This document shows positions 20,047 to 64,000 of a DNA stretch of 64,000 nt, in pieces. Every line of letters starts with the position of its first letter. Position 1 is the stretch's first letter. The stretch lies in the NCBI GenBank assembly GCA_000004985.1, contig GG738881.1. One strand, given 5' to 3'. The notes below the pieces were generated by a model, which saw only the letters and a list, made by a program, of their open reading frames with translations, ran no database searches and was not told the DNA's origin. The stretch comes from Naegleria gruberi (Eukaryota). Both the position numbers and the translations under genes were made by a program.

Positions 20047-21734
20047 ATGGTCTTTCAACTATTTGCAACTACTGCAGATAATTTCAATGCAACCAACAAC
20101 CAAACAAGCGCAATATGTGATGCCTCTTTTTTCAATTCAACATGGTCAAGAGAATTTCCTGGACGAGTTGACTATTCACTATGTCCAGATACTTGGGTTG
20201 GTAAGTGATTTCTACAATGATTTATGAACCGATGGTGCATGCGTAAATGGACAATGTTTAGCATTTGGTATGTTTTAATAGTGCTGACATATTTGAATTT
20301 ACATTAATAGCTCTGTGTTTGACATTTCTTCTCATTTACTTGTCAACAATCTTCTCAAGTGGTTTGGGAGTAATTTGGAAGAGAAATAGTGGTCACATTC
20401 AAGCAAGAAGTCCAATCTACTTGTTTTTCACTCTATTTTCTGCCTTTATATTCATCTTTGGAATGACCATGAGATTTATTGTGGGGAGAAAGATATTTCC
20501 ATGTGGATTGGTTACAATTTTCTTCTTTACATTTCCTCAAGCTGTGACATTGCCAACGATTTTTAGATTGATGAGAACTTTTCTCATGCACAAGATTAAT
20601 TTACAAAAAACCAAATTATTTGATGTTGATGTAAATAAGGGACAAGTCAGAGTTGATCAATCTCAATCAGCTCTATCTGAAACTATGAGTAAAACAGAGT
20701 TAAAGTTGGTTGACTCAGATATTAGCAGTGAAATGTCATTGACAAATGTGGAATTGAATGAAGGAAATGAAGATGGAGACGTTTCAAACTCTAAAATCGA
20801 ATTTAAAAACTTGTCAGATGTAAAGAAGGAAATGAGAAAATTGAATATTTACAACTTTTTAATTAGTTACAAATTCATCACTGTTGTGTACATTCTTGCA
20901 TTTGTATTTGGAATTTTACTTTGGGTACTGATTGGAGTGGTGGAAGAGGTTGTTTATCAAAAAGATCCAACTAAGGGGAGAATATTCCTATTAGAAGGAG
21001 GTATTCTATTGTTTGAGCATGGCTGTGGATTGTCAACCAATACTACTATCATTATTGGAGTTGAATCAATTGCCTATATTATTTTAGAGCTGGTCTTTTT
21101 CATCTTGTGTCTGATGGCTGATAGAGATTCATGGGGAATTAAGAAGGAGAGTCTTGCTCTAATATTCTTTCAAATTGTTGCTGCAGTTCTCTTCATTGTA
21201 TGTGGATCCATTAATGTGATTAAGAATCTTGTGGATTACTATGTACCTTATGGATTTCTCATTTGGGGATACATGCTTTTAGAGGTGATTGTTTGTGTTT
21301 CATTACCTGTTCTATACTCTATAGGAAAAGAGAAGAAACATCAAGAATCGGGTGATACTGGGTTTGAAAGATTATTGAAAAACAAAAAGACATTTGATAT
21401 TGTTCTTGATTTTGCTAGAAGAAGCTACTGTACTGAAAGTGTTCTATGTTGGAGAGATATTGAACGATACAAAAAGAGTGGAAAGGGAAATAGAAAGAAG
21501 ATTGCTCTCCATATAGTCGAGGCCTATTTATCACTGGAAGCTCCTTTAGAATTGAACATGCCAAAAATTCAAGAAAGAAAACAAGAATTATCTGCGATTA
21601 TTGAGAATGGAAGTTTAGAGTTGGACCTTTTTAATGGAATTCAAGAACATTGCCTGCATGATATGATAGATTTAATGGATAGATTATCAAGTGCCAATAA
21701 GGAAATTTCTGAAATATTGAGGAATAGCAAATAG
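20047..21734 (+). CDS. Seven-transmembrane protein with a C-terminal RGS domain (7TM-RGS); exon 1 20047..about 20200, main exon about 20282..21734
   Basis: Exon 1 encodes an N-glycosylation-rich ectodomain (NFNATNNQTS…NSTW) ending at a GTAAGT donor. The main ORF has 7 predicted TM helices, then an RGS box (FDIVLDFARRSYCTESVLCWRDIERYKK…SLEAP…) at roughly 21370..21700. The exact splice junction could not be brought into frame by hand (candidate acceptors at 20261 and 20281). Confidence 0.55.
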
Positions 21735-22026: not shown

Positions 22027-22229
22027 TTTGTTGAATTGTTTTTTTCTATTTTCCATAAAAGAACGAATAATTGGAATAATCTTTAACAGTTAATGAAACA
22101 AACCTTGAGTGATATTTAAATAATTTTAAAATATTAGCTTATTGTAATTATTTTAATATTAAAATAAAGTAATTTTTAATAATTTAATATTTTTTTTATT
22201 ACAAGCAAGGTCTTGATGATGTGATGGAA

Positions 22230-23174
22230 TTACATACCAATGTATTCTTCTTCTTCATCGCCATCAACTTCCTTGTTTTGTTCTCTCAAATTTTCCAAGA
22301 GGACAGTCAAAGAATGGTCATCCTTTTCGTTAACAACTCTTGGAGGAGCTTTAACTGTAACTTCACCGTCATACTTCTTGATAATTTCGGTAATCTTATC
22401 AATAGAAGCTTGTAATGTATCCAAACCCTTTTGTTTATCACTTGTTGTTGTTGCCATAACATAGAGAGGAGGAGCAACAAGGGTAATCTTGATGTCGATT
22501 TCTTCTTCGGTACCAATCTTTTCACCTTCAGATAAAGCTTCTTTCACAGCTTCAATTCCTTCATATGAATAACAAGTTACTTGAATATCGGCTCTCAATT
22601 TAACTGGTTGAGGCTTCAAACGATTTTGTATGATTGAAAGTAATTGTTCTTTGGTATTATTATCAGGGAATTCAATATCTTGGAAAACTTGGTCTGGATT
22701 TGTTAAAGTCATCTTGAAAGCATCAAAAGCATGTCCAAACTTTCTATATAATGGCCATGAAATTAATTTGTTCAATTCTTCCAAGTCTTGGTCAGTTGTT
22801 TCAGCCAAGTGTCTCATGATAGAACTAACAGCCTTGCTCTTGTTATATTTCTCTTCACATTTTGGAATATCTTCAGCAGCAACTTTACTCTTACTCAAGT
22901 CAATATATCCCTTTTCAGGATCAACACGCAAAACAACACAAACTTCATTTCTTCCTAAACGGATTAATTGAGAAATAGAACGAATTCTTTTTCTACTCAA
23001 TTCACTGCTCAAGATAAGACCTTCAATGTTGTTATATTCCAATAAAGAAACATAGGCACCGATATCGGTGATATGCTTGACTTTGACCATCACAAGGTCG
23101 TCGACTTCTGGATGTTGTTGTTCGTAATATCTGCAGCTTTGTTTCTTGGCTTCGCTCATTTTTTTAATTTTCAA
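22230..23174 (-). CDS. EIF2S1: Translation initiation factor eIF2 alpha subunit
   Basis: …SCRYYEQQHPEVDDLVMVKVKHITDIGAYVSLLEYNNIEGLILSSELSRKRIRSI… nearly identical in pattern to human eIF2-alpha, including the Ser51 phosphorylation-site context (LSELSRRRIRS). True start may be the MSEAKK Met at about 23159. Confidence 0.9.
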   Translation of the reverse strand: MKIKKMSEAKKQSCRYYEQQHPEVDDLVMVKVKHITDIGAYVSLLEYNNIEGLILSSELSRKRIRSISQLIRLGRNEVCVVLRVDPEKGYIDLSKSKVAAEDIPKCEEKYNKSKAVSSIMRHLAETTDQDLEELNKLISWPLYRKFGHAFDAFKMTLTNPDQVFQDIEFPDNNTKEQLLSIIQNRLKPQPVKLRADIQVTCYSYEGIEAVKEALSEGEKIGTEEEIDIKITLVAPPLYVMATTTSDKQKGLDTLQASIDKITEIIKKYDGEVTVKAPPRVVNEKDDHSLTVLLENLREQNKEVDGDEEEEYIGM

Positions 23175-23614
23175 TTTTAAAAAAATTTAATTTTAGCTCT
23201 TTTTTAAATGTAAATTAGTACTGCAAGGAGATGAGCCAAAGCTGATAATTGGACCAATTATCATCAGATGGAAGAAGAATATTCTAGCAGGATTATGAAG
23301 GCTTTTTACAATTAGAAATCCTATGAAATTTTATTGGTTGATTTTATAAAAATAAAAAGCATTTCGGAATGTACTTTCATCTTGTTAATGAAAATGATTT
23401 AAAATTCAAAAAGATTTTAACGAGATGAATTTGAAATCAAATAGGAATATGAAGAAGAAACTGATTTATCAAGATTTGGAATATGAATTGAACTTGTTTT
23501 GATTGAGTGGAGCAAGTGAAAAGCCTCCATTACGATCAATCAAAAAAAAATAAGCTCAAATCCCTAGGAGAATTCACCCTCTTGTTTTGAATTAGAATTA
23601 ACATCATCAATAAT

Positions 23615-26366
23615 ATGAAACGATTGGTTTTTAGAGCAGTAAAGGGAGGAAGAGATTCAAGTCTCTTGAAGCCTTGTATCAAGAAGGAACATCAACAATC
23701 AATTATCATGATGAATGGGTCGAATAGTAAAAGAACATTTTTTGATTTTTCGGAGGATGATTTGAAAAAGATGAACAAAGCAACCAACAAACCAGAAGTG
23801 AAGGGTGATGAATTGAAGAAACCAGACGAACATCCAACTTCTTTAAATTCATCTCATTTAGCTCACTCGGAAGGAAGCGAATCAAAGATGGTTGTTCCTA
23901 AAAAGAGATCAATGGCCGTCAACCCTCATGAACCTCTCTATGGTGAATGCCTCAATTTTAAAGCTCAAAATAATTTAATTGATTTTAGTGGAGAAAGACG
24001 AGAGGATGTTAACAAAGTTATGAATATTCTTTCAAATGTTGAAAGTCACAATAATATTATTTTAGGTTAGTTTAATTTTGGATCAACATATATTTTTACA
24101 CATTCAAATAGTTGGTGAAAATGGTGTTGGAAGAAGATCAATTATTGAATCATTGGCCTATAAGATTACTAAAAATCCAGAAAATGTTCCAGAACGTTTG
24201 AGGAACACAAAAATAATTGAGCTCTCTGTTGATAACTTGTATGGATGCAATGTTACAAATAATATTTGCACAACCTTCTTCAATGCATTGAAATCACTCA
24301 AGGTTTATGATGCCTTTAATTATGATTTGCCTCCAAATCCAAAATTAATGTCGATTGAGGAAAAGAAAGCGCATCTATACGGAAATAATCCGCCTCCAAC
24401 AGCTCATGATGAGGATGTCGAAAGATTGTTCAACGAAATGGTTGAATCTGTACAATTATATAGAGAAAATAGAGAAAAAACTAATCAACCTAAGATTTTA
24501 TTTATTCATCAATTTTATAATATGGTAGATGATTATTCATACTCTTTCTATGATAGTGTATCATCAGTTTTGCAACCTTTATTGGAAAAGAAGAGGCTTA
24601 AATTAGTAACATGTATGACACCATCTGAGTATGCCAAATTCACAAAGAATCCACTTGCTTCTCATTTTGAAGTTATCAAAGTTGGTGAGCCAAACTTTGC
24701 CACTACATTGGATATTGTAACAAAGAAGAAGGAATATTTGGAAGCATCTCATGGAGTTTTTATTGATAATGATATCGTTGAAGAGGCTCTCTTACTCTCT
24801 AATAGATATATCCCACTCAAGGCAAATCCAATGAAATGTATTTCAGTTCTAGATGAGTTGGCATCAATTGTTGAAAAGAGAGGTTGTTCAATTCCTATTA
24901 ATGTATTGGAGTTAGAGGATAAGATTAAGAAGGTGTCAATTGATATTGACAAAAAGAGTGATGATGATATTGATACTTCTTCATTAATGAAAAAATTGGA
25001 AAAGCTTAAGGAATCATACGCAACAAAATATTCTGCTTGGAAGGCTGAGTACCAAGCTCTTCAGTCTTACAGAGAAAATAGAGTTAGATTAATAGGGTTG
25101 AAGAAGGAACTTGGTGATTGTATTGCATCTATTACCAGTCCTGACTGCGAGTCTGCCAAGAGGGCATCAAAAATAATTGAAGATGATATTCCAGAAGTGA
25201 AGGCAAGTTTGAAAATCTTTGAAAAACAGTCTGCCAAAAACAAATATGTCAACAATAGAGCTACTTTGGATGACTTGTCTGTAGTGATTTCTAGAATGTC
25301 TGGAATTCCTCAAAAGGATTTGTATTTCACAACTCAAAAGAATCATTCTCTTAATAATATGGAGTCTATCTTGGAAGAACAGGTAATTGGACAAAAACAA
25401 GCAATTTCTTCCATTTCAAAAACAATACGAGTTGCCAAGCTAGGTCTCAGAGATGCTAACAAACCTCAAGCTTCACTCCTATTTTGTGGATTTTCAGGGG
25501 TTGGTAAAACTGAGCTTGCTAAACAAATAGCTAAAGTTGTTTATGGAAATGAAAATTCTGTATCTGTAATTGACATGACAAAGTATAATACTGAGTTCTC
25601 TGTATCCGGATTGATAGGCACATCGGCTGGCTATGTAGGTTACGATGATGGTGGCGAGCTAACCAACACAATCAAGAAGAATCCATTCCAAGTAATTATT
25701 TTTGATGAAATTGAAAAGGCACACAGTAGAGTTTGGAATATTTTATTACCAGTTTTTGAGGAAGGTGTTTGTCAGAATAATTATGGTGAAAGTGTTTCTC
25801 TGAAAGATACAATTATCATTCTTACATCTAATGTGGGTACAAAACGATTGTTCCAACACAAGGAAGAGGACAAGGATTTGACACAACAAGAAATCTTCCA
25901 TGAAGAAATCAAGGAAACTTTTGCTCCTGAATTCCTCAATAGATTAGATGATATCGTCATTTTCAATGAGCTTTCCATGCATGATTTGGATAAGATTTTG
26001 TCAATTCAATTGAGAAAGTTAGAAGAAAGACTTTCAAAGAAGAGAGAAATCAAGATTGAACTCTCTACTGAAGCTAGACAATTCTTAATTTTTAACTCAT
26101 TTGATATTCAGTTGGGTGCTCGTCCAATTAAGAGAAATATTCAAAACTACTTATCGGCACCAATTTCAGACCTCTTCTATCAAGGAAAATTGGACAAGCA
26201 TTGTACTTTGAAGGTAGATGTTGATGAGAAGAAATTGAAAGTGGAAGTGATAGTAGATGAGAAGAAGGAAAGTCAAGAAAAGAGGAAACGAAACAATGAT
26301 TATGATGACTTATTAGAACTCGATCACAAACTTAAGAATGCTATCAAATCATCAAATGTAGAATAA
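23615..26366 (+). CDS. ClpB/Hsp104/Hsp78-type AAA+ disaggregase homologue with degenerate NBD1; join(23615..24065,24112..26366)
   Basis: 46-nt intron (GTTAGT..AG) joins …NNIILG to VGENGVGRRS…. NBD1 Walker A is GENGVGRRS (canonical GEPGVGKT). NBD1 Walker B is ILFIHQFY (canonical ILFIDELH). A coiled-coil middle domain is present. NBD2 is intact: GFSGVGKTELAK, VIIFDEIEKAH, sensor and C-terminal small domain. The N-terminus is basic, possibly an organellar presequence, and there is no ClpN domain. Confidence 0.7.
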
Positions 26367-26388
26367 ATGAATACTTCTTATTTATTTA

Positions 26389-26850
26389 TTAATAACCACC
26401 TCTCAATCTCAATACCAAATGGACAGTTGAATCCTTTTGAAGATTGTAATCTGAGATAGTTCTACCATCTTCCAATTGTTTACCAGCATAAATCAAACGT
26501 TGTTGATCCGATGGAATTCCTTCCTTATCAAAAATCTTTTGTTTCATATTCTCAATAGTGTCATTCGATTCCGTTTCAATAGTAATGGTCTTTCCTGTCA
26601 ATGTTTTCACAAAAAGTTGCATTCCTCCTCTCAATCTCAACACCAAATGAAGAGTGGAGTCTTTTTGAATGTTATAATCATTGAAAGTTCTGCCATCTTC
26701 CAATTGTTTACCTGCGTAGATGAGCCTTTGTTGTTCTGGTGGAACTCCTTCCTTATCTTGAACCTTTCTTTTAACATTTTCAATTGAATCGTTTGATTCA
26801 ACTTCCAATGTGATAGTTTTACCAGTGAGTGTCTTGACAAATAATTGCAT
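26389..26850 (-). CDS. Di-ubiquitin-like protein (two divergent ubiquitin-fold repeats, each ending LRLRGG, plus terminal Tyr)
   Basis: Repeat 1 [76 protein letters not shown]. Repeat 2 [77 protein letters not shown]. About 80% identity to canonical ubiquitin. K48 and K63 are retained. Confidence 0.8.
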
Positions 26851-27262
26851 GATTGGTTTGAATTGTTTTTTTCTTATTGTTGAAATTCAAACCTAAATCT
26901 TCCCACTATTTATGTGAATCTGCGGTTTTTGTGTATTTTTAGATAAAAGTTCTTTGAAAGAGCTAGTTGAGCTTTGAACTAGTTTTGTTTCTCTACACAA
27001 ATTTTGGAACTTGGGATATATTGTAATTTAAAAGCACAAAAGGTGAAAATTAGCATGTTAATATCGAATAACTAATTAGATTGTATTTTTTTCATATTTT
27101 TTCACTTTGAAATGTTTGTGGGTGTAATCATTGCTGATTGTCTTGATATATACTTGATAAATGTATTCAAATTTTTTACCATATCAACTAGACATTTTGG
27201 AGTGCCTTTTGTGGCTTTCATGTGTCTTAATAAAAAGAGCTCAAGTAAAAAGAGACAAAAGC

Positions 27263-27343
27263 TGCAGAAGGTGGGATTTGAACCCACGAAGCTTGCGCAG
27301 TAGAACTTGAGTCTACCCCCTTTGACCACTCGGGAACCCCTGC
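27263..27343 (-). tRNA. tRNA-Leu (anticodon CAA), class II with long variable arm
   Basis: Minus-strand sequence GCAGGGG-TT-CCC-GAGTGGTCAAA-GGG-G-GTAGA-CTCAAGT-TCTAC-TGCGCAAGCTTC-GTGGG-TTCAAAT-CCCAC-CTTCTGC-A. Acceptor stem has two G-U pairs. Anticodon loop is CTCAAGT. Confidence 0.75.
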
Positions 27344-29074
27344 TTCACATTCATTCACATTCATTCTTTATCACACTGAAATAGAATTCTATTTTCTAAA
27401 GTACACAACTACACTGAAGGTCCTTCTTACTTTCGTATTATCATCTTTATTCACCAAGAAAGCCTGACTGGTAGCCTTATTCTTTCAAATATTTTCTTGA
27501 ATCTGTTATTGAATTTTTTCCCAATTTTTTAACCATAACTTTTCTGCATAACAATTTACACTTTCAGAACCAATATAACATCATTGAGGATGCAAGATTG
27601 ATAAAACCATTGACTGTACTTCTACAGGATCTTTTCTGTAGGAATACATAAACTCGACTTTTTTGAGTCAATCTGACCTTTGAGGTTAACCAAGATGAAG
27701 ACTCTGTAGTCACATATCTTGAGCATGATATCGAACTGGAAACATGCTTCGCTGTAGGTTTCCTCGTTCATAGATGATTGCTGCATTCCTTACCAGCCAT
27801 GGTTTGTGAATGGGGGATTTGTGAACATGCAGATTGGTACCTTAAACTTTTTATCAATTAATAGAAAATTAATACCCTAGCTGCCAATAAACTAAAATTA
27901 AATTCTATCAAGATCGGAATATCAACACTTTCCTTTAATTTACTTTAATCAACATGGTTAAATGTAGATTGTGTATTCAAAGCTAATCTTGAGCTCACAA
28001 TTCTTCTGAATGAACATCAACTAAATGTTTAGTTATCTTCATTGCACTGTATTGGAGTTAGACAAGTGTTGTTCTAAAGATTTGACATTTGTCATGGAAA
28101 TTAACACTTGCTAGGTATGTGTTTAATCCTCTTCAAAGAAGTCTAATACTATACTATTGTTTTTGAAAAAGTAAAAGCAAATATTTGAAGACTCAAATCC
28201 GTAAATTGATCTTTTATTGATCAACCACAAGTATCTCTTTCTAAATGATAAAATTCAAAGGTGATATATAGATGGTCACGTAGCAAGCTTTTCTAAATAA
28301 CAAACTTACTGAACCAACAATCAATAGATTCGTTGCCTTCACTGTTCATACAGTCAAAGACTGTAGCGGGATAGTCGCCATATTCCTGGCAGGCTTCCCG
28401 TCTAATTTAACAATTGAAATTTAAATAATACAATAATATGTTCCTCACAGTAGTAAGGGCAGTAAATTGATTATCAATCAAAAAAAATGAAATATTTAAT
28501 ATGGCCGTATATTAGTTCACAATATTCTCATTTAACACTCATATTGATTTTGTAAAAATGTAGTTACTTGGAACGATGATTCAAAATGGAAAAGTTCCAA
28601 TATTGCTTTTCAAAGATTGAGAAGATTGATATTTGAGCAAAATGTTAGAATTGAATACTTTAAGTTTTATTTACAATGATCGCCTAGGTTTACAAAATTG
28701 TGAGTTGTGGAGATTACCACATTTTGAATTGTTTGTTTCTCATTTCTAAAGTATTATGTGATTGAGATTTAGAAGTTTTACTTGTTTCATTTCCGAAATT
28801 TCCTTGGATAACATTATTGGTGAAGTGTTATTGGAGGAATTATACATATTTCTTCTTGTTGAGACCATTTTCTTATTATTATTTTGTTATTTTCTTTTGT
28901 AGATTTTCATTAAATTTCCTTCATCAAAATATTAATAGAAAAATTCAAACTTCTTGTTAAAAATCGGAATCACAAAATTAGTGGAAATCATCTTGGAAGT
29001 AAATAGATAACTGATCGGATGATGATATTTCCACAACAAAACAAAATAACTAAATAACAAACACTAAGAGCAAA

Positions 29075-31284: not shown

Positions 31285-33084
31285 ATGATCAAGAAACCAG
31301 AACTCTTTTCCGACGATATTTGTTTTGAAATTCTTTCCCATTTGGCAAATGATTGGAAATTTATTTTCACAACTTGTTCATTAATTTCTCAACAATGGCT
31401 AAATGTTATTAAACACAATTCATCATTGTTGAATCTTTCCATTTATTTTAATCAAAAACTAAATGATGAACAGAAAAATCAAATGTCAAAATGTGAATTA
31501 TTAACATGTTTATCCAATGTGAAAGTTTATTCAAAGATTGCGAAATGGTTTTGTACAAATATTGGAATATTCATGAAAGGAATGATTAGATTAGAAATTA
31601 GCTATTGTCGTTTGGAAGCAGAAGATGTCAATTTTATTGGTGAAATGAAGCAATTAACTGAACTTGATATTAGTTTAAATAATATTAATTGTAAAGGAGC
31701 TATTACTATCAGTCAATTGAGTAAATTAACTAAACTCAATGTTTATCAAACCAAAATGGGTGTTGAAGGTGCTAAAGAACTAAGTAAATTGAAAGAACTA
31801 ACATCCCTCGAAATAGGAGACAATCATTTAAAATCTGAAGGAGCAGCTCACATTGCCCAAATGAGAAAATTAACATTCCTTGATATTAATACCAATATGA
31901 TTGGAAATGAAGGTATTGAGCTGATAAGTAGAATGGAACAATTAACTGATTTAGATGTTATGGATAATAATATTCGATCAGAAGGTGTTAAATCACTCTG
32001 TAAAATGAAACATCTTACTAATCTAAATATTGGAAACAATCCAATTGAAGATGAAGGGGCTATATTATTAGGTGAAATGAAACAATTGAAAAATCTCATT
32101 ACAGCTTGCAACAATATTGGGATGAAAGGATTTAGCTCACTTAGCACATTACTCAATTTGGAATCACTTGTTATACTTGGATTAGATGGTAAATCTACTG
32201 ATTTCATTCGTGAAATGAATCAATTAACTCGTCTTGAATTTTATGGTTCTAACCTTGAGCCAAAAGGTTTCGATCCAATTAGTCACCTGTCCAATTTAAC
32301 ATTTCTAACTATAAGGGGTCGAAATATTGCTGATGGTGACTTGGAATGTATTGGTCAATTTAAAAAGCTGACCACACTTAATGTACCATCATGCAATATT
32401 AATCAAGGATTTAAATCAATTTGTGGGTTGAAGAATTTAACATTCCTTGACTTGAGCTATAACAAAATTGAAAGTGTTGAATCAATTACTAATTTGAAGA
32501 GTTTGACACAACTTGACATCAATGGGAATCGAATTGGACATGAAGGAGCAAAATCTATCAGTCAATTAGACAATTTAACTAATCTCCAAATCGGTCATAA
32601 TTTAATACAAGATGAGGGAATCAAGTATTTAAGTACTATGCAGTGTTTAACTACTCTGGGTGTGGCTGAAAATCAAATAAGCATTGAGGGTGCCAAGTTC
32701 ATAAGCAAATCTCATCAATTGACTTCACTTGATCTCACAAACAACGTTATCGAAACTGAAGGAGCCAAAATTTTGAGTGAGCTCAATAATTTGACAGGGT
32801 TATTTGTTTATGGAAACAGAATTAGAGATGAAGGAGCCAAATATATCAGTACTATGCAACAATTAACAATTCTTGATATTGCCTATAATGAAATAACAGA
32901 TGAAGGAGCAAAAGCAATAAGTAATCTCGATCAACTATCGACACTTTATATTTATTCAAATGAAATTTGTGATGAAGGAGCAAAATCCATTTGTGGAATG
33001 AAACAATTGACCATTCTTGATATTGACTATAATGTACTTAGTGAAGAAGTATCCAATCAATTAAGAATGGAATACCACAACTAA
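31285..33084 (+). CDS. F-box-like / leucine-rich repeat protein (ribonuclease-inhibitor/NLR-type LRRs)
   Basis: N-terminal F-box-like segment (ELFSDDICFEILSHLANDWKFIFTTCSLISQQW). Then about 18 tandem 28-29-aa LRRs with the L..L.L..N.IGDEGAK.L… pattern. Confidence 0.75.
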   Translation: MIKKPELFSDDICFEILSHLANDWKFIFTTCSLISQQWLNVIKHNSSLLNLSIYFNQKLNDEQKNQMSKCELLTCLSNVKVYSKIAKWFCTNIGIFMKGMIRLEISYCRLEAEDVNFIGEMKQLTELDISLNNINCKGAITISQLSKLTKLNVYQTKMGVEGAKELSKLKELTSLEIGDNHLKSEGAAHIAQMRKLTFLDINTNMIGNEGIELISRMEQLTDLDVMDNNIRSEGVKSLCKMKHLTNLNIGNNPIEDEGAILLGEMKQLKNLITACNNIGMKGFSSLSTLLNLESLVILGLDGKSTDFIREMNQLTRLEFYGSNLEPKGFDPISHLSNLTFLTIRGRNIADGDLECIGQFKKLTTLNVPSCNINQGFKSICGLKNLTFLDLSYNKIESVESITNLKSLTQLDINGNRIGHEGAKSISQLDNLTNLQIGHNLIQDEGIKYLSTMQCLTTLGVAENQISIEGAKFISKSHQLTSLDLTNNVIETEGAKILSELNNLTGLFVYGNRIRDEGAKYISTMQQLTILDIAYNEITDEGAKAISNLDQLSTLYIYSNEICDEGAKSICGMKQLTILDIDYNVLSEEVSNQLRMEYHN

Positions 33085-36216: not shown

Positions 36217-36266
36217 NNNNNNNNNNNNNNNNNNNNNNNNNNNNNNNNNNNNNNNNNNNNNNNNNN
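36217..36266. other. Assembly gap (50 N)
   Basis: Run of 50 N characters. Scaffold gap, not biology. Confidence 1.
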
Positions 36267-43417: not shown

Positions 43418-44539
43418 ATGGTCAACAATACAAGAATGATTCCTCAGATTGCCAATGTGCCAATAGAGGTGATTCGAATTATTTGTTCTTTCATGAGCAA
43501 TTTGGAGAACATGTTTGTGAGTGGAAATGTTTCATTGACATGGAGAAGAGAAATTGCCTTTCCAATTTTACTAGATAATTTAAAGAGAATTCATTCCGAT
43601 CCTATTGATGATGAGATCACTGATTACAATTATTTCAAAACGGTGAAAATTGGAAGAAATTTTATTAGAATGGAATTGAGAAGATTTCTTTATGAATTTT
43701 CATTGAAATTATATGATTTTCAAAATTTAAATCAGAATTCTAAACCTCCTCTTGCTTCTATCGATTGTAATGAGTACTTGTTGGAAGAATTTGAACAAAT
43801 TCAATTTTATTTTTCACATTTTTCAATTCCAAAGTTAAATTTGATCGAAAAGAAGACTGAAAAGACTGGACTCTTTAAAATGATTTCGAGTTTATTCTCA
43901 AAACAACCAAAAAAACAGGAAAAGACGAATGACGAACCAATCATTGTTGATATTAACAAGAATAGGGTTGTGGAGAAAGAACCAGTGACTGAAATTGTTT
44001 GTAAAATAGCTCTCGATGGCTATCGTGCAACTGGAAGGACATCGTTTCTGAATGCTTCGTTAAGAGATGACGCTATTGTGAATAAGGACTATTATCCTTC
44101 AATTGGAATTGATTTTGCTGCGAGAATCTTTTCATTTCCAGAAGTGTTGACCAACATATACAAAGTTCAAGTATGGGATTCCCCTTATTCCCAACTACAA
44201 CCTGCATATGTGAATAATACTACAATGATTATGGAAGTTTTTGATTTGACAAAAAGAGAAACATTAGTCCATTTAATTAATGAAAATATTCCACAAATCA
44301 AACGATTAAGGCAAACTCCCCTCGAACTTGTATTTATTGGAACAAAACAAGATGTCATTCAGGAGAATCCTCAAACCAGAAACATTCCACCCAAAGACAT
44401 TCAAACATGTTGTCTCAATAATTTTGGAGGAGCCCTCTGTGTTGAACTTTCTCTAACAGAACTCAAACAAGCTCAATCATTAATATGGTACAGTGTTCTT
44501 CTTCAAGATATTTGCTATCCAAAAAATCTCAAAGAATGA
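43418..44539 (+). CDS. F-box-like N-terminus fused to a degenerate Rab/Ras-like small GTPase domain (pseudo-GTPase)
   Basis: KIALDGYRATGRTSFL (G1 lacks GKS/T). YPSIGIDF (Rab switch I-like TIGIDF). VQVWDSPYSQ in place of DTAGQE (no catalytic Gln). FIGTKQD is an NKxD-like G4. N-terminus IPQIANVPIEVIRIICSFM is F-box-like. Confidence 0.55.
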   Translation: MVNNTRMIPQIANVPIEVIRIICSFMSNLENMFVSGNVSLTWRREIAFPILLDNLKRIHSDPIDDEITDYNYFKTVKIGRNFIRMELRRFLYEFSLKLYDFQNLNQNSKPPLASIDCNEYLLEEFEQIQFYFSHFSIPKLNLIEKKTEKTGLFKMISSLFSKQPKKQEKTNDEPIIVDINKNRVVEKEPVTEIVCKIALDGYRATGRTSFLNASLRDDAIVNKDYYPSIGIDFAARIFSFPEVLTNIYKVQVWDSPYSQLQPAYVNNTTMIMEVFDLTKRETLVHLINENIPQIKRLRQTPLELVFIGTKQDVIQENPQTRNIPPKDIQTCCLNNFGGALCVELSLTELKQAQSLIWYSVLLQDICYPKNLKE

Positions 44540-57253: not shown

Positions 57254-60200
57254 TTATTGGAGTGAATAGGTAATTAAATACTTTGGATAAGCTTGTGAAT
57301 TTTTGTAAACAATGAAAATATCACTTCCACCAGTATTTCCCTTCACACTGTCATATCTTACAGCAGAGTTTGGCTTGAGAGGAGGAATTCTAATATTACT
57401 ATTTGAACTACAACTGTGAAAATCACCTGTTAACACTTCAGCAAGGAAAAATTTTCTGTAATTAGTACCTGGAACGGGAAAAGCATAGCCATTAGAATAA
57501 CTTGCATTGACAGCAAAATAACATCCAATTCCCCACATTCCAGTATTTGAAAATCTCATGTCAAATCCTTCATGACCATCATAGATAATGCTTGGATCTG
57601 TACTTCTTGTTCCATGGAACAATAATTGAGGATCGGTTGAATATTGTCCATTTGAATCAATCTTAATCTTGTTGATTCTATCTTGTTCAGTTTTATAACT
57701 TTGATAAACCAATTGATTTTGAACTTTTTCAATATTTTGAATCACTGCATTTGGAATGGTCAATTTAATTCTATCATTGATCATTTTCCATTCATTACTT
57801 GATTGAGATAAATTGATGAGAATTACATTTGAAGTTTGAAGCTGCCAATCTTGAGGATAACTGAATTTACTCAACAATTCAGGTTTATCAGCAATGGTCA
57901 AGAGAGCATATTCCTTAAATTTGTCAACTGTATACTTGAATCCAGTAATTGTAAATGGTGATACGTTCATATCAATCTTTAACATTCCATTATCAAATTT
58001 TGCTTTCATTGATGCATGTTCTGATAGAATGTGATCAATTACAAACTTGTTACATGATTTTGTTAAGGACTCGGTAATGTAGCTTTCTTTGATATTATTT
58101 CTAAAATTAAGCTCGAATGATTGAACATCTGAAGCTTCTCCATAAAGTCTGAATGAATAAACAGATTCAGTTACGCTTGCATATTTAGTTTTGCTAACTG
58201 ATTTAACAATTTGAATGGGAACAGTATCAGTAATTAGTATTCTGTTATGAGCAGATCCACTCACAAATGTGTAATGATTGTCATCTTGATCATAAACATA
58301 CAAGATGGAATTCTTATTCAAATCTGATGCAACATCAATGTTACACTTCACAATTTTTTGAATTGGTATCCTCTTAACTCTTCTTACATATTGAGTTTGT
58401 GAGTTGACTTGAACGTGCTCTTCTTTAAGGTAATCGAATTTCACAAAATATTTGATATCTTCAGAGGTATACTTTTCATTAGTCATCAGTACATTACATT
58501 CAGTATTTCTTTCATTATAGCTCCTTTCAATTTCTTTCATTTGATTTTCTCTATAAGGATTCCATGTCTTGTTATCATCAGCCAACCATAGCCATAAAGC
58601 AGTCAAATGTTCAGTATCCATTGTTGGAACATAAATAATCTTTCTCTTAAATTTAGAAGAATTTTCAATTTGTTCCATCTTGTCAAAGTCAATTTGGTAC
58701 TTTTTACCTTGTTCCGCATTCAAAATGAAAGTTGACTTGGGATCTTTTTCATATTCTTGACATAATTTACGATTATCATTCACTGTGAATGGCAAATACA
58801 TCTTTTTGATATCATCAAAATATTTGAAACATCCAACATATTCATCTTGTTCAATTTCAATAAATGAGGAATCATTCTTTGTATCTAATGTATAGACTAG
58901 ATCTGTTTGTAATAAGTTGATAGATTTTGAGAATGATTCAGTAACTGTATTAATATCACCAATCAGTATAATTTCCCTCAAACATGATAATTGTGGTGCA
59001 TATTTGTAAATTGTTCTGACAATGATATCAGTTGATTGATCAAGTGGGAATCCAAATATTCCAGATGAAAGTGCAGGAATAATGATTGAACAATATCCAT
59101 CCTTTTCTGCTTGAGTCAAAATATTCACAACTGTTTGTTCAAGTAAACTACATGAGTTAAGATGATTATTTGAATCATACATTGGAGGAATGGCATTATA
59201 AATCTTTGAGAGGTAACTGAGATTTCCAGCAGTTGTTGGAACTACATCACCTGGTTTGAGTTTAAGAGAGGTGGTAATATTTTTACATTCTTGATCAAAT
59301 TGTTTTCCACATTTCTCTAAACATTGAGCAGCAATTCCTCCACCATGTGCCAATTGGTCATTTGCACTGTTAACAAGTACTTGAGCTTTCCATTTCTTAT
59401 CAAACATGTCACCTTGACAAATGTAAATAAATGAATTCTCAATTTTGTGAACTTCCTTGATTCCACTGTCAAGTTTCTTTTCCAAAACAACCTTACCCTT
59501 TGTCTCAATATTCTTTTCTGAAAAGAATTTGAATTCATCATGTTGCATTCTAATAAAGTCAACCAATACTTTCTTTCTCACTTCCATCATTACTCTGTGA
59601 TAGGAATTGTCAATGAATTTGTACATATCTTGAGATGGTGCAACTAATGTAATTGATAGTCCTTGTTCTAAAATCTTTACATTATTTTGTTGAACTGACT
59701 TGAGAAGTGGTAATGCAAGATTCTTTTCAATAATATTATTAAAAGTCAATTTGATTCTCTTTTCTTTTGATTGCAAAAGTTCAGATTCAATTCTTGATTT
59801 CACTTCCTTCACATCTTCATCTCTTAATCCCTTGATATAAAAAGTCTTCTTATTTGAATCAAAATCAACATTAATTGATGAAATATCCTTCTTGAACTTG
59901 TCAATCTTGGTTTTAACAGTTACCTTTTTCAGTAAATGTTCATTGACTTGTTTTGCTTGAACAATATCAGAGCTTCCTTTCAACAATTCACTCAATTCAT
60001 TTCTAATCTTCATTTCATTTTCTTGATTTTCAACAATAGCAAATAAAATAATAATGTTCTTTGACTTTTCAGGTGCCAAAACTGTTGAGGCAGTTTGAAT
60101 TTCTGTTAATTGCTCAAAATATTTCTCACCTTCCTTTTTAACATCTTCTTTCAAAGAGGCATGGATAAATTGTAATTCCAATTTAACACTTTTAATTTTC

Positions 60201-61604
60201 TTAAGCTCTGCTTGCAATAATTGTCTTGCCTTTTTAGGTACATTTAATACGATCATCTTACTGGCATCCTTTTCGTCTCTCTTGCATTTGAATTCAATTT
60301 GGCCACTCTTTAATAAGTGAGAGCTGAACTTTCTCAAGAACTTATATTGTGTAGTTTCTATAGTTACTGGATTCTTTGTATCACCCTTCTTAATCTTGTT
60401 AAAAACTTTGTATTCACTTTCACTCTTCAAAGTACATTCAATTTGAAAGTTTTCATTTTGTTTGGTATATTTAAATTGAATATTTTTGTTAAACAATTCC
60501 TTTTTTGTAGCATCAAAATCATCCTTTGGAATTGAAAACTTAATTTTGAACAAATCAATAATTAATTGATTGTTATATATATCACTCAATGAAGTTAAGT
60601 GCCAAGTAGTGAAATTTTTCTTGGATTCTTCAATATATAAATATACACCTGGTGGCAATTTCTTTTGAACTTGGTCTTTCTTTTCATTGCTATTTTCATA
60701 ATAAAATTCGACGAATCTTGCAGGTTGCAATAACTTGATAACAAGATTTTGTAAATATTGTTGAACATTTTGAATATTTGGTTGTGTTGGTTGAATTTTG
60801 AAAGTAATTGTCTTATCTTTGATCTCAAATGAATTGTTTGTACCACCAGACATTTGTGATAACTCTCTTCTCAAGTCATCACTGAAGAATTTATCCAAGG
60901 CAACTGCTTTGATTCCAGTTGGAATTTCAATAGAATAAACTCCAGCAACAGTTTTCTTTGGCTTATTGTCAATGGTAATTTCAAGTGGTTCATTATAATA
61001 CTTGATGGAAGAACATTTTTCTTTGATTATCTTGGCAATACCATATGTTGAAATATTGACCCAAATAAGTTGTTTCTTCTTATTGGTAGTGAGTACAGGT
61101 TTAACTTTTTCTTCATTAAGAATGTTTCCAACTAATTCTGGAACAGTCAACTTGATATTGAAGAGTACATCATTAAAATCAACACCAAGAGGGAATACAA
61201 TACGAACAGCTTCAGTTACAACGGCACTAGATGTTGAATCAAACGAAGTGGAAGAACTAGGTGATACTTCTCTATCACTAAAGTTATCAATTGGTGTTTG
61301 AGGAGTTGAACTAATTCTTTGATTCATTCTCAAAGGATCAATTTGAATGTTAGTCATTTGTTGATTCATCATTTGACTATTATTCATAGTGTTATAATAG
61401 GTATTGTTGTTTGGATTACCATAATTATTATTGGTATTCATAGGTTGGTTATAATTCATAGAAATTTGATTAGTATTGCCATAATTATGCATACTACTAC
61501 CAGTACTATTATAATTCAAAAGCAATTGTTGATTACCACCACCCATTGTATTACTAATAGGATGAACCATGGTTTGATCATAAGGATTGTTCATACCATA
61601 ACCA

Positions 61605-61635
<31 letters not shown>

Positions 61636-61954
61636 AATTAGCATTAAAATCATATTGATTCATATTGGTATGATTATTAAGTAACAATCCATTTGAACCA
61701 TATTGATTGTTACTTAATGAATTGATAGGTTGTTGTTGTTGTTGGCCATTCATTGCTGAAGAATTAGTGTACATGTTGCTTTGAATGGGATCATTAAACA
61801 TTTGGTTATTATTACCACCATAACCTTGATAGAATTGACCACCATTATTGTACATATTTTGTCGGTGATTTTGCTCTTGGTTTGGTTGTTGGTTATAACC
61901 TTGTGTTTGATTTTGTGGAGTTAGCATATTTCTGGTTTGTTGAATAAAACCCAT
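57254..61954 (-). CDS. Macro-domain / WWE / PARP catalytic domain protein (PARP14-like mono-ADP-ribosyltransferase architecture) with a roughly 215-aa Q/N-rich prion-like N-terminus
   Basis: 1566-aa single ORF. Macro domain (…KAQVLVNSANDQLAHGGGIAAQCLEKCGKQF…). WWE-like segment (…HLTALWLWLADDNKTWNPYRENQMKEIERSY…). C-terminal PARP fold: LLFHGTRSTDPSIIYDGHEGFDMRF…GMWGIGCYFAVNASYS…SDIFIVYKNSQAYPKYLITY, with an H-Y-I triad (I in place of PARP1 Glu988). N-terminus is N/Q/G/Y-rich with an (ATT)n-encoded poly-Asn. Confidence 0.8.
61608..61632 (-). repeat. (ATT)n microsatellite encoding poly-Asn inside the PARP N-terminal prion-like domain
   Basis: attattattattattattattatta on the plus strand = (AAT)n on the coding strand = NNNNNNNNN. 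Confidence 0.8.
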
Positions 61955-62308: not shown

Positions 62309-64000
62309 TTAGAAAAGGCCGTGATCTCTCAAAGTCTTTTGTAAAATAATATCCTTAATATCATCCATAACCATCAAAGAAGCATCTTCACGTATCAAAT
62401 CAACAAAATGAGTGTATAAACACCGTTGTCTAATTGTTGGATCAACATTAATAAATTTCTCAGCAACAAAACTAGTGTAGAGGAATACATGATCACCAGA
62501 ATAATCAAAGTCTGGAAAACACATTCGAAGAGGAACAGATTTGATTCTTTTACGGAATATATCTAATTTTGTAAATACTAAAATGATTGGTGTATCTTTG
62601 TAAAAGCTTAAGATTTCTTTGAACATTGAAAGTGAATTATGCATATGGGAAACCAATATTTGGTTTTGAGTTGGAGGAACAAAATTTAGAGGGTCAACAA
62701 TTGGTGGGCTTTGAGGATTTTTAGTTGGACTAAAGTCAAGTAAGCTTAAAGAATATTCACAATATTCACTTAAAGAAACCATGAAAACAATTGCAGAAAC
62801 TGAATCTCTATCAAAATGAGAAGTCATCCACTTTCTTCTTTCATTTCTTTGTCCAGTAATATCTACAAACTCACATGGGAACGGAAAATTTAACTGACAT
62901 GTTTCAATAGATGTAGAAGGAAAATATGTAGTTAAAATATCTCTTGATGTTGGTGTATATCTTAGTGATGCTATTCTGTCAATATTATCAAAAAAGTATC
63001 TTGCATTGTAAAGTATTGAGTTATTTAAAGATAACTTGTCAAATGTGTGTTTTACGTATTTATCCTTCCATAAACTCTTAAATAATTCAACTGCTTCTGG
63101 ATTTAAGAAATTTTGAGTAATCTTATTAGATTCCTCTGATTGAGTATCATATTGTGATGGTTGTTTGTGGAATTGTTTTGAATCATTTTTAAAATTACTT
63201 AATCTTTGGTGAAGAACGTTTAAACTTTCATCCAATGATGATGAAACTCTTAAAGGAGATTTGTTCTTTGGAGTTATAGGTATGGATTGGCTTGTATTAT
63301 TACTAGCAGCACTATCACTATTGCATTCATTTTGTGTATTTAAAGTTTGATTAAACCTCCAAAGTTGAAGTAATTGAGCTCTTCTCCTTAAATTTTCTCT
63401 AAATTCTGTTTCCGTGACATTCTTAATTAAATATTTTGCATTATTCAATACAAATTTCAATATTTTACATTTAAATAATTCTACAACTTGTTCATTCGAA
63501 TAATCACCCTCTAATAATTTGATTTTTCTAATGAGGGTACTTTTTCCTGATTTACCAGATCCAAGAGTTAAAATTCTAACTTTTTTAGGTTTTTTAGAAT
63601 CCAACTCGATTTGCCTTTGGATTCTACGATCATTTTCATTGTTATCAACATCAGATGAAACTCTTTGAATGTTTGATGCTGATCGATCTAAACTATTGAA
63701 AGATGCTCTTCTACGAGGTGTTGTGGTTTTCTTTGAAGGTAAAGCATCATCACTTGGTGAATTACTTGTAGGAGATGGTGAACCAAAAACCATTTGATCA
63801 TCATTTTCTATTGCTAATTCAATCATGGCATGAGAAGATGATGATCCATTAACGTCTTCATCCTGAATTAGACTTGATGTAAAATCATTGATTGAACTCA
63901 AGTCAGCAGTTGATTGTCTAAGAATATTAGAATGTTCTCTATGATGATGCTCCCTATTCTGAGTTGATGATGATGATGGTATTTCATTATTCTCCAAAGA
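62309..64000 (-). CDS. Heterotrimeric G-protein alpha subunit-like protein, divergent; partial (N-terminus lies beyond the window end)
   Basis: G1 KVRILTLGSGKSGKST. Switch I DILTTYFPSTSIET (Tyr where the catalytic Arg sits). G3 DITGQRNERRKW. G4 FTKLD. C-terminal …YTHFVDLIRED…DHGLF lacks the TCAT (G5) box. More than 145 aa of S/N-rich sequence precede the G1 box, and there is an S/N-rich insertion in the helical domain. The ORF-track 'M' at 63997 is a TTG. Confidence 0.7.
   Translation of the reverse strand, partial: SLENNEIPSSSSTQNREHHHREHSNILRQSTADLSSINDFTSSLIQDEDVNGSSSSHAMIELAIENDDQMVFGSPSPTSNSPSDDALPSKKTTTPRRRASFNSLDRSASNIQRVSSDVDNNENDRRIQRQIELDSKKPKKVRILTLGSGKSGKSTLIRKIKLLEGDYSNEQVVELFKCKILKFVLNNAKYLIKNVTETEFRENLRRRAQLLQLWRFNQTLNTQNECNSDSAASNNTSQSIPITPKNKSPLRVSSSLDESLNVLHQRLSNFKNDSKQFHKQPSQYDTQSEESNKITQNFLNPEAVELFKSLWKDKYVKHTFDKLSLNNSILYNARYFFDNIDRIASLRYTPTSRDILTTYFPSTSIETCQLNFPFPCEFVDITGQRNERRKWMTSHFDRDSVSAIVFMVSLSEYCEYSLSLLDFSPTKNPQSPPIVDPLNFVPPTQNQILVSHMHNSLSMFKEILSFYKDTPIILVFTKLDIFRKRIKSVPLRMCFPDFDYSGDHVFLYTSFVAEKFINVDPTIRQRCLYTHFVDLIREDASLMVMDDIKDIILQKTLRDHGLF

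Follow-up and report, generated by a model that had tools for sequence, protein, structure and literature searches.

The gene NAEGRDRAFT_50682 of Naegleria gruberi (protein XP_002674899.1, UniProt D2VM27, public annotation 'predicted protein') encodes a ClpB-like protein in which the first of two nucleotide-binding domains (NBD1) has lost its catalytic motifs and the second (NBD2) has kept all of them. The gene lies on a 64,000-nucleotide stretch of contig GG738881.1 (assembly GCA_000004985.1; 32% G + C), which is called the window below. ClpB, Hsp104 and Hsp78 are the textbook examples of disaggregases with two rings. The division of work between their NBD1 and NBD2, and their control through the M-domain and Hsp70, have been studied mostly with engineered Walker mutants, in which function is usually crippled. 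The protein described here belongs to a small natural family that is devoid of the NBD1 catalytic elements, has kept the AAA+ fold, the M-domain and an entire NBD2, and has been maintained by purifying selection in at least two genera. It is best read, with a probability of roughly 0.6, as an Hsp78-derived mitochondrial unfoldase or disaggregase that is driven by the NBD2 ring only, with NBD1 as a structural pseudo-ATPase.

The coding sequence runs on the + strand from the ATG at 23615 to the TAA at 26364-26366, and the exons 23615-24065 and 24112-26366 join into an open reading frame (ORF) of 2706 nucleotides for a class-I Clp/Hsp100 protein of 901 amino acids. All features of this gene given below are on the + strand. 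The large subdomain of NBD1 (23930-24698; residues 106-346), which the intron interrupts, was delimited by a HMMER alignment to the Thermus thermophilus ClpB structure 1qvr, and it forms a five-stranded AAA+ core in an AlphaFold2 (AF2) model of the Naegleria lovaniensis orthologue. The former Walker A motif reads GENGVGRRS (G152-S160; 24114-24140), with R158 in place of the Lys and R159 in place of the Thr of the canonical GxxGVGKT. The former Walker B motif is ILFIHQFY (I279-Y286; 24495-24518), in which H283 and Q284 replace the Asp and Glu of the canonical ILFIDE; the orthologues carry PG, PN and PN at these two positions. The arginine-finger site, LERRF in ClpB, has become LASHF (residues 332-336, with S334 and H335 at the finger positions; 24654-24668). 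None of the four family sequences has an Arg aligned with either finger of NBD1; in the relative P0051 an Arg stands one residue upstream. The adenine loop has changed from the canonical DPVIGR to DFSGER. In the alignment with canonical ClpBs, pore loop 1 (KYRGEFE) is replaced by a lineage-specific insertion of 59 amino acids (residues 193-251; 24237-24413), and no pore tyrosine is aligned. This insertion contains the conserved blocks LYGCNxTNN and PPHP and is modelled as a helix-loop-helix in both AF2 models, with predicted local distance difference test (pLDDT) scores of 66-86. Among the NBD1 motifs, sensor-1 retains its canonical Thr (T320). A Pfam search gave no significant AAA match on NBD1; the small (lid) subdomain that follows (24699-24893; residues 347-411) is matched by AAA_lid_9 at 347-437 (E = 3e-17).

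A preliminary description of this locus, made from the DNA letters, had proposed a protein of the ClpB/Hsp104 class with a catalytically degenerate NBD1, and sequence, profile and predicted-structure evidence now agree on that core reading. Its Walker A Lys-to-Arg change is R158, next to which it had missed R159 in place of Thr, and its Walker B change from DE to HQ is confirmed by the alignment with ClpB. The damage that it described in these two motifs is real but was understated, as the arginine fingers, pore loop 1 and the adenine loop are gone too. Judged by these motifs, both ATP binding and ATP hydrolysis would have been lost from NBD1. Functional Walker A and B motifs in both NBDs, a pore Tyr in both rings and arginine fingers in both rings, all expected of ClpB, Hsp104 and Hsp78, are absent as complete sets from the N. 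gruberi protein.

NBD1 could instead have been re-wired, its GxxGxGR-x-S loop and the residues V289-D290-D291, which closely follow the former Walker B strand, binding a nucleotide or another anionic ligand in a structural or allosteric role like that of NSF D2, or even supporting slow hydrolysis. Five residues of the loop (G152, G155, G157, R158 and S160) and V289-D291 are invariant in the four species, neighbouring positions vary, and both AF2 models still show the NBD1 fold. However, the Mg-coordinating Thr is replaced by Arg or Asp, the adenine loop varies even within the family (DFSGER, LHDGRS, PIYERE and QTLHRE), both arginine fingers are gone in all four sequences, and sensor-1 is not invariant. 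In addition, AF2 places the VDD residues in a loop after helix 286-289 and not at the end of a strand. A re-wired NBD1 is therefore considered quite improbable.

The part of the protein beyond the NBD1 lid agrees with the preliminary description, which had called the M-domain and NBD2 intact. The M-domain (24894-25244; about residues 412-528) is a long coiled coil of the type of about 115-125 amino acids that marks the ClpB subfamily, inserted in the small subdomain of NBD1. It aligns along the whole M-domain of 1qvr, and its helices are placed by AF2 at residues 413-431, 437-489 and 497-524. The large subdomain of NBD2 (25338-25964; residues 560-768; Pfam AAA_2 at 601-765, E = 2.9e-50) carries all catalytic motifs in intact form: Walker A, GFSGVGKT (610-617, with K616 and T617; 25488-25511); the pore-loop tyrosine Y658 in GYVGY (25626-25643); Walker B, IIFDEIEKAH (679-688, with D682 and E683; 25695-25724); sensor-1, N724 (25821-25832); and the arginine finger, R761 (25932-25949). 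The small subdomain (25965-26225; residues 769-855; Pfam ClpB_D2-small at 771-852, E = 1.9e-17) contributes an equally intact sensor-2, GARPIKR (26115-26135), in which G819, A820 and R821 are invariant. The NBD2 catalytic motifs are invariant in all four species. A regular-expression search between NBD2 sensor-1 and the arginine finger found no ClpP-docking loop of the form [ILMV]-G-[FLM].

Residues 1-41 (23615-23737) form a basic, presequence-like N-terminus with 10 Lys/Arg against 2 Asp/Glu and a net charge of +8, in accord with the earlier proposal of such a terminus. The leaders of all four family members are basic and acid-poor, with 41 amino acids in N. gruberi and 53-80 in the orthologues, and may act as mitochondrial targeting presequences. 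Each leader ends in a conserved motif, R-x-FFD[FLI][SG][ED]D[DE][LI][KR] (residues 40-52; 23732-23770), of which F42, F43 and D44 are invariant. The mitochondrial processing peptidase (MPP) follows an R-2 rule, with an Arg two residues before the cleavage point. The Arg of the motif stands two residues upstream of the first Phe and so fits this rule; the block may be an MPP cleavage site or, alternatively, a docking motif. The place of the Clp_N domain is taken by a low-complexity linker that is predicted to be disordered (residues 53-105; 23771-23929) and has 26-32% identity among the orthologues. Pfam gave no Clp_N match (PF02861) in the N. gruberi protein or in its three relatives. In the AF2 model of the N. 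lovaniensis protein the region equivalent to the linker has pLDDT below 50 and the first 150 or so residues are predicted to be disordered, so that no N-domain appears to be hidden at the N-terminus. The protein was thus rightly described as having no N-domain. At the other end, a C-terminal extension (residues 856-901; 26226-26363) contains an acidic helix that is conserved in the family, D[ED][LI]LEL[EDK][YH], and both AF2 models show a long C-terminal helix.

The decay of NBD1 together with new conserved motifs, namely the FFD box near the N-terminus and the acidic helix near the C-terminus, suggests new partners, and the protein might then be a scaffold that no longer threads polypeptides, serving as an adaptor or repressor as plant SMAX1/D53 does on a ClpB-like chassis. 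The state of NBD2 makes this very improbable: its Walker A and B motifs, pore Tyr, sensor-1, sensor-2 and arginine finger are invariant, and with 48-64% identity within the family it bears the signature of an active motor.

In searches of solved structures the best match was T. thermophilus ClpB (1qvr, 2.4e-105), spanning NBD1, the whole M-domain and NBD2, followed by Escherichia coli ClpB at about 1e-91 and by Hsp104 of yeast at about 1e-80. Pfam, the 1qvr alignment and AF2 all indicate two tandem AAA+ modules with Clp-type lids, the arrangement of class-I Clp/Hsp100 proteins. The best NCBIfam model was likewise that of ClpB (TIGR03346), at 452.5 bits against an equivalog cut-off of 1232.1. 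ClpA/ClpC, ClpV, ClpG and ClpK were rejected as identities, given NCBIfam scores below that of ClpB, the missing ClpP loop and the full-length M-domain. AF2 modelling covered the N. gruberi exon-2 product (residues 152-901; mean pLDDT 87.9, predicted template-modelling score 0.73) and the full-length N. lovaniensis orthologue (mean pLDDT 80.5), and each model has a pair of AAA+ modules and, in the M-domain, three long helices. Foldseek searches against the PDB returned ClpB, ClpC and Hsp104, with template-modelling (TM) scores of 0.67-0.69 to 4ciu, 1qvr and 5zui. Among the sequences compared, the closest canonical NBD2 is alphaproteobacterial. Similarly, the published BLAST best match of XP_002674899.1 is an alphaproteobacterial ClpB (PMC8134430). 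By its sequence, the protein descends from the ClpB/Hsp78 branch yet fails several defining tests of that family. Its putative affinity to Hsp78 within the branch is suggested by architecture, location and these indirect alphaproteobacterial hints.

An exhaustive phmmer search of NBD1 plus M-domain against 1.84 billion cluster representatives found three relatives that match over the whole query, at 367, 243 and 202 bits, and the next match followed at 114 bits. The matches below the three relatives were ordinary Clp/ClpB-type proteins where sampled. Homology searches by word index, one of which used the alignment of all four members, missed the orthologues and gave only the identical ENA ORF (see below) and distant bacterial Clp proteins. 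The relatives are XP_044555531.1 of N. lovaniensis, KAL9649036.1 of Willaertia magna and the protein P0051 of an uncultured eukaryote from a metagenome, the gene of which adjoins one for ribosomal P0 of eukaryotic type. Naegleria and Willaertia are both members of the Naegleriidae. Every family member has the GxxGxGR[R/D]S loop, no Walker B Asp-Glu pair, no NBD1 finger Arg, the insertion and the complete set of NBD2 motifs. The Walker A Lys-to-Arg change is invariant in the four, and the Walker B pairs are HQ, PG, PN and PN. The comparison across species that had been suggested thus finds the Lys-to-Arg change and the loss of the Walker B Asp-Glu pair conserved in all four members found.

Within the family, pairwise identity is 37-44% in NBD1 and 48-64% in NBD2, the best-conserved part, whereas identity of the N. 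gruberi protein to canonical ClpB is 22-26% in NBD1 and 38-43% in NBD2. The low NBD1 identity to ClpB next to the much higher identity within the family indicates that NBD1 diverged fast from ClpB and then came under constraint. Between species, amino-acid identity is 38-48% and synonymous sites are saturated. The neighbourhood is conserved as well, with an eIF2alpha gene transcribed divergently beside the gene in both N. lovaniensis and N. gruberi.

Degenerate NBD1 domains were also found in two bacterial or metagenomic proteins. P0016 has GVGKR, ILFVQS and LLRSF in NBD1 and a Clp_N domain; P0042 has GVGKE, LYLPQF and IKENF, no M-domain and N-terminal membrane segments. Like the Naegleria protein, both have lost the NBD1 Walker B Asp-Glu pair and arginine fingers with NBD2 intact; unlike it, both have kept the Walker A Lys. 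Neither is closely related to the Naegleria family. An origin of the family from such bacterial proteins was considered and rejected (in a BLAST search with NBD1, P0042 was matched at E = 8e-4 and P0016 was absent among the matches listed). P0016 and P0042 lost the NBD1 Walker B motif and arginine fingers independently, so NBD1 degeneration has happened more than once.

The locus has also been assembled independently. The ENA contig L001 (ERZ929261, PRJEB11402) is 99.3% identical to window positions 22180-27145, with indels outside the coding sequence only. Within the coding sequence it differs at eight positions, all synonymous third positions, and its protein P0001 is identical to the 901-amino-acid protein. 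With 20% of sites synonymous, eight of eight synonymous changes would be expected under neutrality with a chance of about 3e-6. The contig is labelled 'metagenome' and represents a second N. gruberi isolate or haplotype in that sample. The gene is real, expressed and selectively maintained, and it is under purifying selection.

The gene model used here differs from the public one. Exon 1 (23615-24065) comprises codons 1-150 and the first base of codon 151, its ATG being the first start after an upstream stop, and its residues 109-151 align with T. thermophilus ClpB 156-200 and with the orthologues. The 46-nucleotide intron (24066-24111; GTTAGT...AAATAG) contains an in-frame TAG at 24068, and its removal restores the frame and the conserved strand and P-loop NNIILVGENG. 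Exon 2 (24112-26366) encodes the remainder of codon 151 through residue 901 and the TAA stop. At the junction the exons join as HNNIILVGENGVGRRSIIESLAYKI, with the full reading NNIILVGENGVGRRS, that is, ILVGENG, the split codon G|TT encoding V151. The preliminary description had found this intron, the removal of which joins two frames into the stretch that intron-free orthologous ORFs also encode; its junction, ILGVGENG, had one G too many. It had also implied an amoebozoan host, but N. gruberi is a heterolobosean (Discoba).

In the public model XP_002674899.1, by comparison, the protein has 828 amino acids, begins at Met33 and is spliced across a 169-nucleotide intron (23943-24111) that removes residues 110-150. 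The 41 residues dropped in this way match ClpB residues 156-200 and hold eight positions that are invariant among the orthologues (G110, C112, L113, N114, R128, I138, N147 and L150). Neither the N. lovaniensis orthologue nor P0051 has an intron at this site, and both encode the stretch 110-150 in single uninterrupted ORFs. In addition, a single-nucleotide difference at 23944 in isolate L001 turns the GT donor of the public model into GC, a synonymous change (GGT to GGC) in the 901-amino-acid model. The 46-nucleotide intron is favoured over the 169-nucleotide one because of the ClpB alignment, the eight invariant positions, the uninterrupted orthologous ORFs and this loss of the donor. The basic N-terminus is likewise absent from the public model, and its basic character is kept in all orthologues. 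The public model, which is without the presequence and 41 residues of NBD1, needs correction, and its faulty construction probably explains the non-mitochondrial targeting predictions that have been reported for the protein.

That the database model is wrong in both its start codon and its intron might suggest that the degenerate NBD1 is itself an artefact of sequencing, assembly or splice prediction, or that the gene is a decaying pseudogene. This explanation is refuted and carries a negligible probability. The independent L001 assembly encodes the identical protein with synonymous differences only, which disposes of a sequencing error, one of the refutations that had been envisaged; the orthologous ORFs are free of introns and carry the same substitutions; and 10 peptides have been detected by mass spectrometry (PMC8134430). 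Alternative splicing that would supply a canonical GKT and DE was envisaged as well and is ruled out, since all NBD1 motifs lie inside exon 2 and the uninterrupted orthologous ORFs have the same changes. Scans with Rfam and for tRNAs gave no RNA gene within the locus, ORFs on the opposite strand inside it are all shorter than 80 amino acids, and the ORFs on either side match eIF2alpha (XP_002674990) and polyubiquitin (XP_002674991) of N. gruberi exactly.

Evidence on expression and location comes from an organelle fractionation of N. gruberi, in which 4198 proteins were detected and 946 of them, by co-fractionation with 376 marker proteins, were designated as putatively mitochondrial (Horvathova et al., 2021; PMC8134430). 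XP_002674899.1 is found in the 946-protein mitochondrial cluster, among chaperone and assembly proteins (PMC8134430, Suppl. Data 2), with 10 unique peptides, 15.8% coverage and a signal that rises to its maximum in the densest fraction, the one richest in mitochondria (PMC8134430). The organellar role suggested in the preliminary description is supported by this placement in the mitochondrial proteome (PMC8134430). Hsp78 is characterized by a mitochondrial location, a presequence and no N-domain, and the proteome placement and the basic N-terminus of the Naegleria protein, a predicted presequence, correspond to these features. The protein would probably lie in the matrix, with its presequence cleaved off. 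In the literature found, the proteome table has a row for this protein and nothing further was reported on it, and no natural ClpB with a dead NBD1 was described.

Rather than working alone, the Naegleria protein could be a regulatory subunit that forms mixed hexamers with, or caps, a canonical two-motor mitochondrial ClpB/Hsp78 paralogue and tunes its activity or choice of substrate, much as in Pex1/Pex6 or with the inactive subunits of other AAA+ rings. Canonical ClpB needs its NBD1. N. gruberi has further Hsp100 genes, listed under 12 JGI IDs that do not include 50682, and one Naegleria sequence groups with mitochondrial Hsp78 (PMC12283024). The low abundance of the protein is also in keeping with a regulatory subunit (PMC8134430). 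On the other hand, no other ClpB-, Hsp78- or Hsp104-like protein is present among the mitochondrial proteome entries listed, and NBD2 has every motif of an autonomous motor, including the trans-acting arginine finger. A partner role is thus regarded as unlikely, though it is the strongest of the alternatives weighed here.

On the preferred reading, that of a disaggregase with NBD2 as its sole motor, the protein would be imported by way of its basic presequence and would assemble into a ClpB-like hexamer. ATP would be hydrolysed by the NBD2 ring only, and polypeptides would be pulled through the Tyr658 pore loops. The NBD1 ring would be a passive scaffold for assembly and regulation, a mount for the M-domain and a platform for substrate entry, of which the 59-amino-acid insertion would form a new entry surface. 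Hexamer formation, threading and disaggregase activity are predicted. There are two precedents: in ClpB, NBD2 is regarded as the main motor (compare PDB entry 6qs4), and human Skd3/CLPB is reported to disaggregate with a single NBD2-type ring (PMC7343390).

Several points weigh against this reading and moderate its probability. The dead state of NBD1 is deduced from its motifs, and the former P-loop keeps the invariant residues named above (G152, G155, G157, R158 and S160). Other ATPases with a Walker A Lys-to-Arg mutation frequently remain able to bind nucleotide. Because of these mutants and of the invariant P-loop residues, NBD1 may keep ligand binding. Mutation of NBD1 deprives canonical ClpB and Hsp104 of most of their function, so a single-motor ClpB with an M-domain is not a given. 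In the M-domain, E507 is aligned at Y503 of E. coli ClpB, and the three relatives have Q, T and T there; the Y503D mutant of E. coli ClpB is labelled 'hyperactive' in PDB entry 4d2x. With the equivalent Tyr replaced, cooperation with Hsp70 is uncertain and canonical control by Hsp70 doubtful. The input alignment for AF2 consisted mostly of canonical ClpB, which biases the model towards the ClpB fold. The mitochondrial assignment is one of co-fractionation, with an intensity about 2^10 below that of mtHsp70 and values missing in many replicates (PMC8134430). The TargetP mitochondrial score was only 13, on the N-terminally truncated database model, and the PSORT score on that model was poor too (PMC8134430). 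Finally, the observation that this is the sole 'Clp'-annotated entry, with no Hsp78-, Hsp104- or Hsp101-like protein beside it, has the scope of the table entries listed (PMC8134430).

Among known systems, Hsp78 of fungi, plants and protists is one of the closest. It is nuclear-encoded and mitochondrial, with a presequence, no Clp_N domain, two AAA+ modules, a ClpB-type M-domain, no ClpP loop and a sequence of bacterial type, all as in the Naegleria protein. However, Hsp78 has two active NBDs and an NBD1 pore Tyr, and the Naegleria protein has in addition the 59-amino-acid NBD1 insertion and extra conserved motifs at its N- and C-termini. Bacterial ClpB (1qvr and 4ciu) shares the fold (TM 0.67-0.69), the full-length M-domain and the NBD2 motifs, and TIGR03346 is the best model. 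In contrast to bacterial ClpB, the Naegleria protein scores far below the equivalog cut-off, has no N-domain, has a pseudo-ATPase for NBD1 and has the Tyr at the Y503 position replaced. Hsp104 has the same class-I architecture with an M-domain and also a C-terminal extension past NBD2, but is more distant by score, is cytosolic, and has both rings active as well as an N-domain.

Skd3/human CLPB is a mitochondrial protein of the Hsp100 family with a sole ATPase ring of the NBD2 type, and it matches the Naegleria NBD2 at about 1e-42. It differs in that ankyrin repeats stand where NBD1 and the M-domain would be, and in its location in the intermembrane space, whereas the Naegleria protein keeps a folded NBD1 shell and the coiled coil. 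Pfam gave no match to Ank domains, and the combination of Ank with a single NBD2-type module that defines Skd3/CLPB is not present. Pex1/Pex6 (D1) and NSF (D2) also combine a structural ring that does not hydrolyse ATP with another that is the motor, but they belong to the classical AAA clade, have no M-domain and are not homologues at the family level. SMAX1/D53 is a further case of a ClpB-derived chassis with degenerate ATPase features, and the structure 9kkx matches NBD2 weakly (4e-09). Unlike the Naegleria protein, with its fully intact NBD2, SMAX1 has a double Clp_N domain and is a nuclear repressor targeted for degradation.

Other features of the window were recorded beside this gene. 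Next to it lies a di-ubiquitin ORF (26389-26850, - strand; XP_002674991), which ends in RLRGGY and the repeats of which are about 76% identical in DNA. Just downstream of this polyubiquitin gene are a tRNA-Leu(CAA) gene (27263-27343, - strand) and a U3 small nucleolar RNA gene (27610-27838, + strand; Rfam RF00012, 76 bits). A Ras-family ORF (43418-44539, + strand; Pfam Ras, 1.2e-10) has the P-loop DGYRATGRTS, in which the Walker A Lys is also replaced by Arg, and is a second candidate pseudo-NTPase in the window. A protein of 1566 amino acids (57254-61954, - strand) has Macro, WWE and PARP catalytic domains after a long Asn/Gln-rich N-terminus. The neighbourhood is rich in signalling genes, which include those for an RGS-domain protein (20265-21734, + strand), an LRR_6 repeat protein of 599 amino acids (31285-33084, + strand) and a G-protein alpha subunit (62309-63997, - strand). 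An assembly gap of 50 N occupies 36217-36266.

The family offers a ready-made single-motor ClpB, optimized by evolution, for biochemistry and cryo-electron microscopy, and a natural test of operation with one ring. It forms a bridge from canonical Hsp78 to human Skd3/CLPB, which has NBD2 only. Humans lack the family. Given the N. lovaniensis orthologue, the pathogen Naegleria fowleri is likely to have a copy too. More tentatively, the working mitochondrial disaggregase of the Naegleriidae may be an obligate single-motor ClpB without the Hsp70-docking Tyr, in which the NBD1 ring has become a platform for ligand sensing or substrate docking, formed by the GxxGxGR-x-S loop, the VDD residues and the 59-amino-acid insertion. 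If so, the two-ring design and the control circuit of NBD1, M-domain and Hsp70 in ClpB and Hsp104 would be dispensable and could be rebuilt in a different way.

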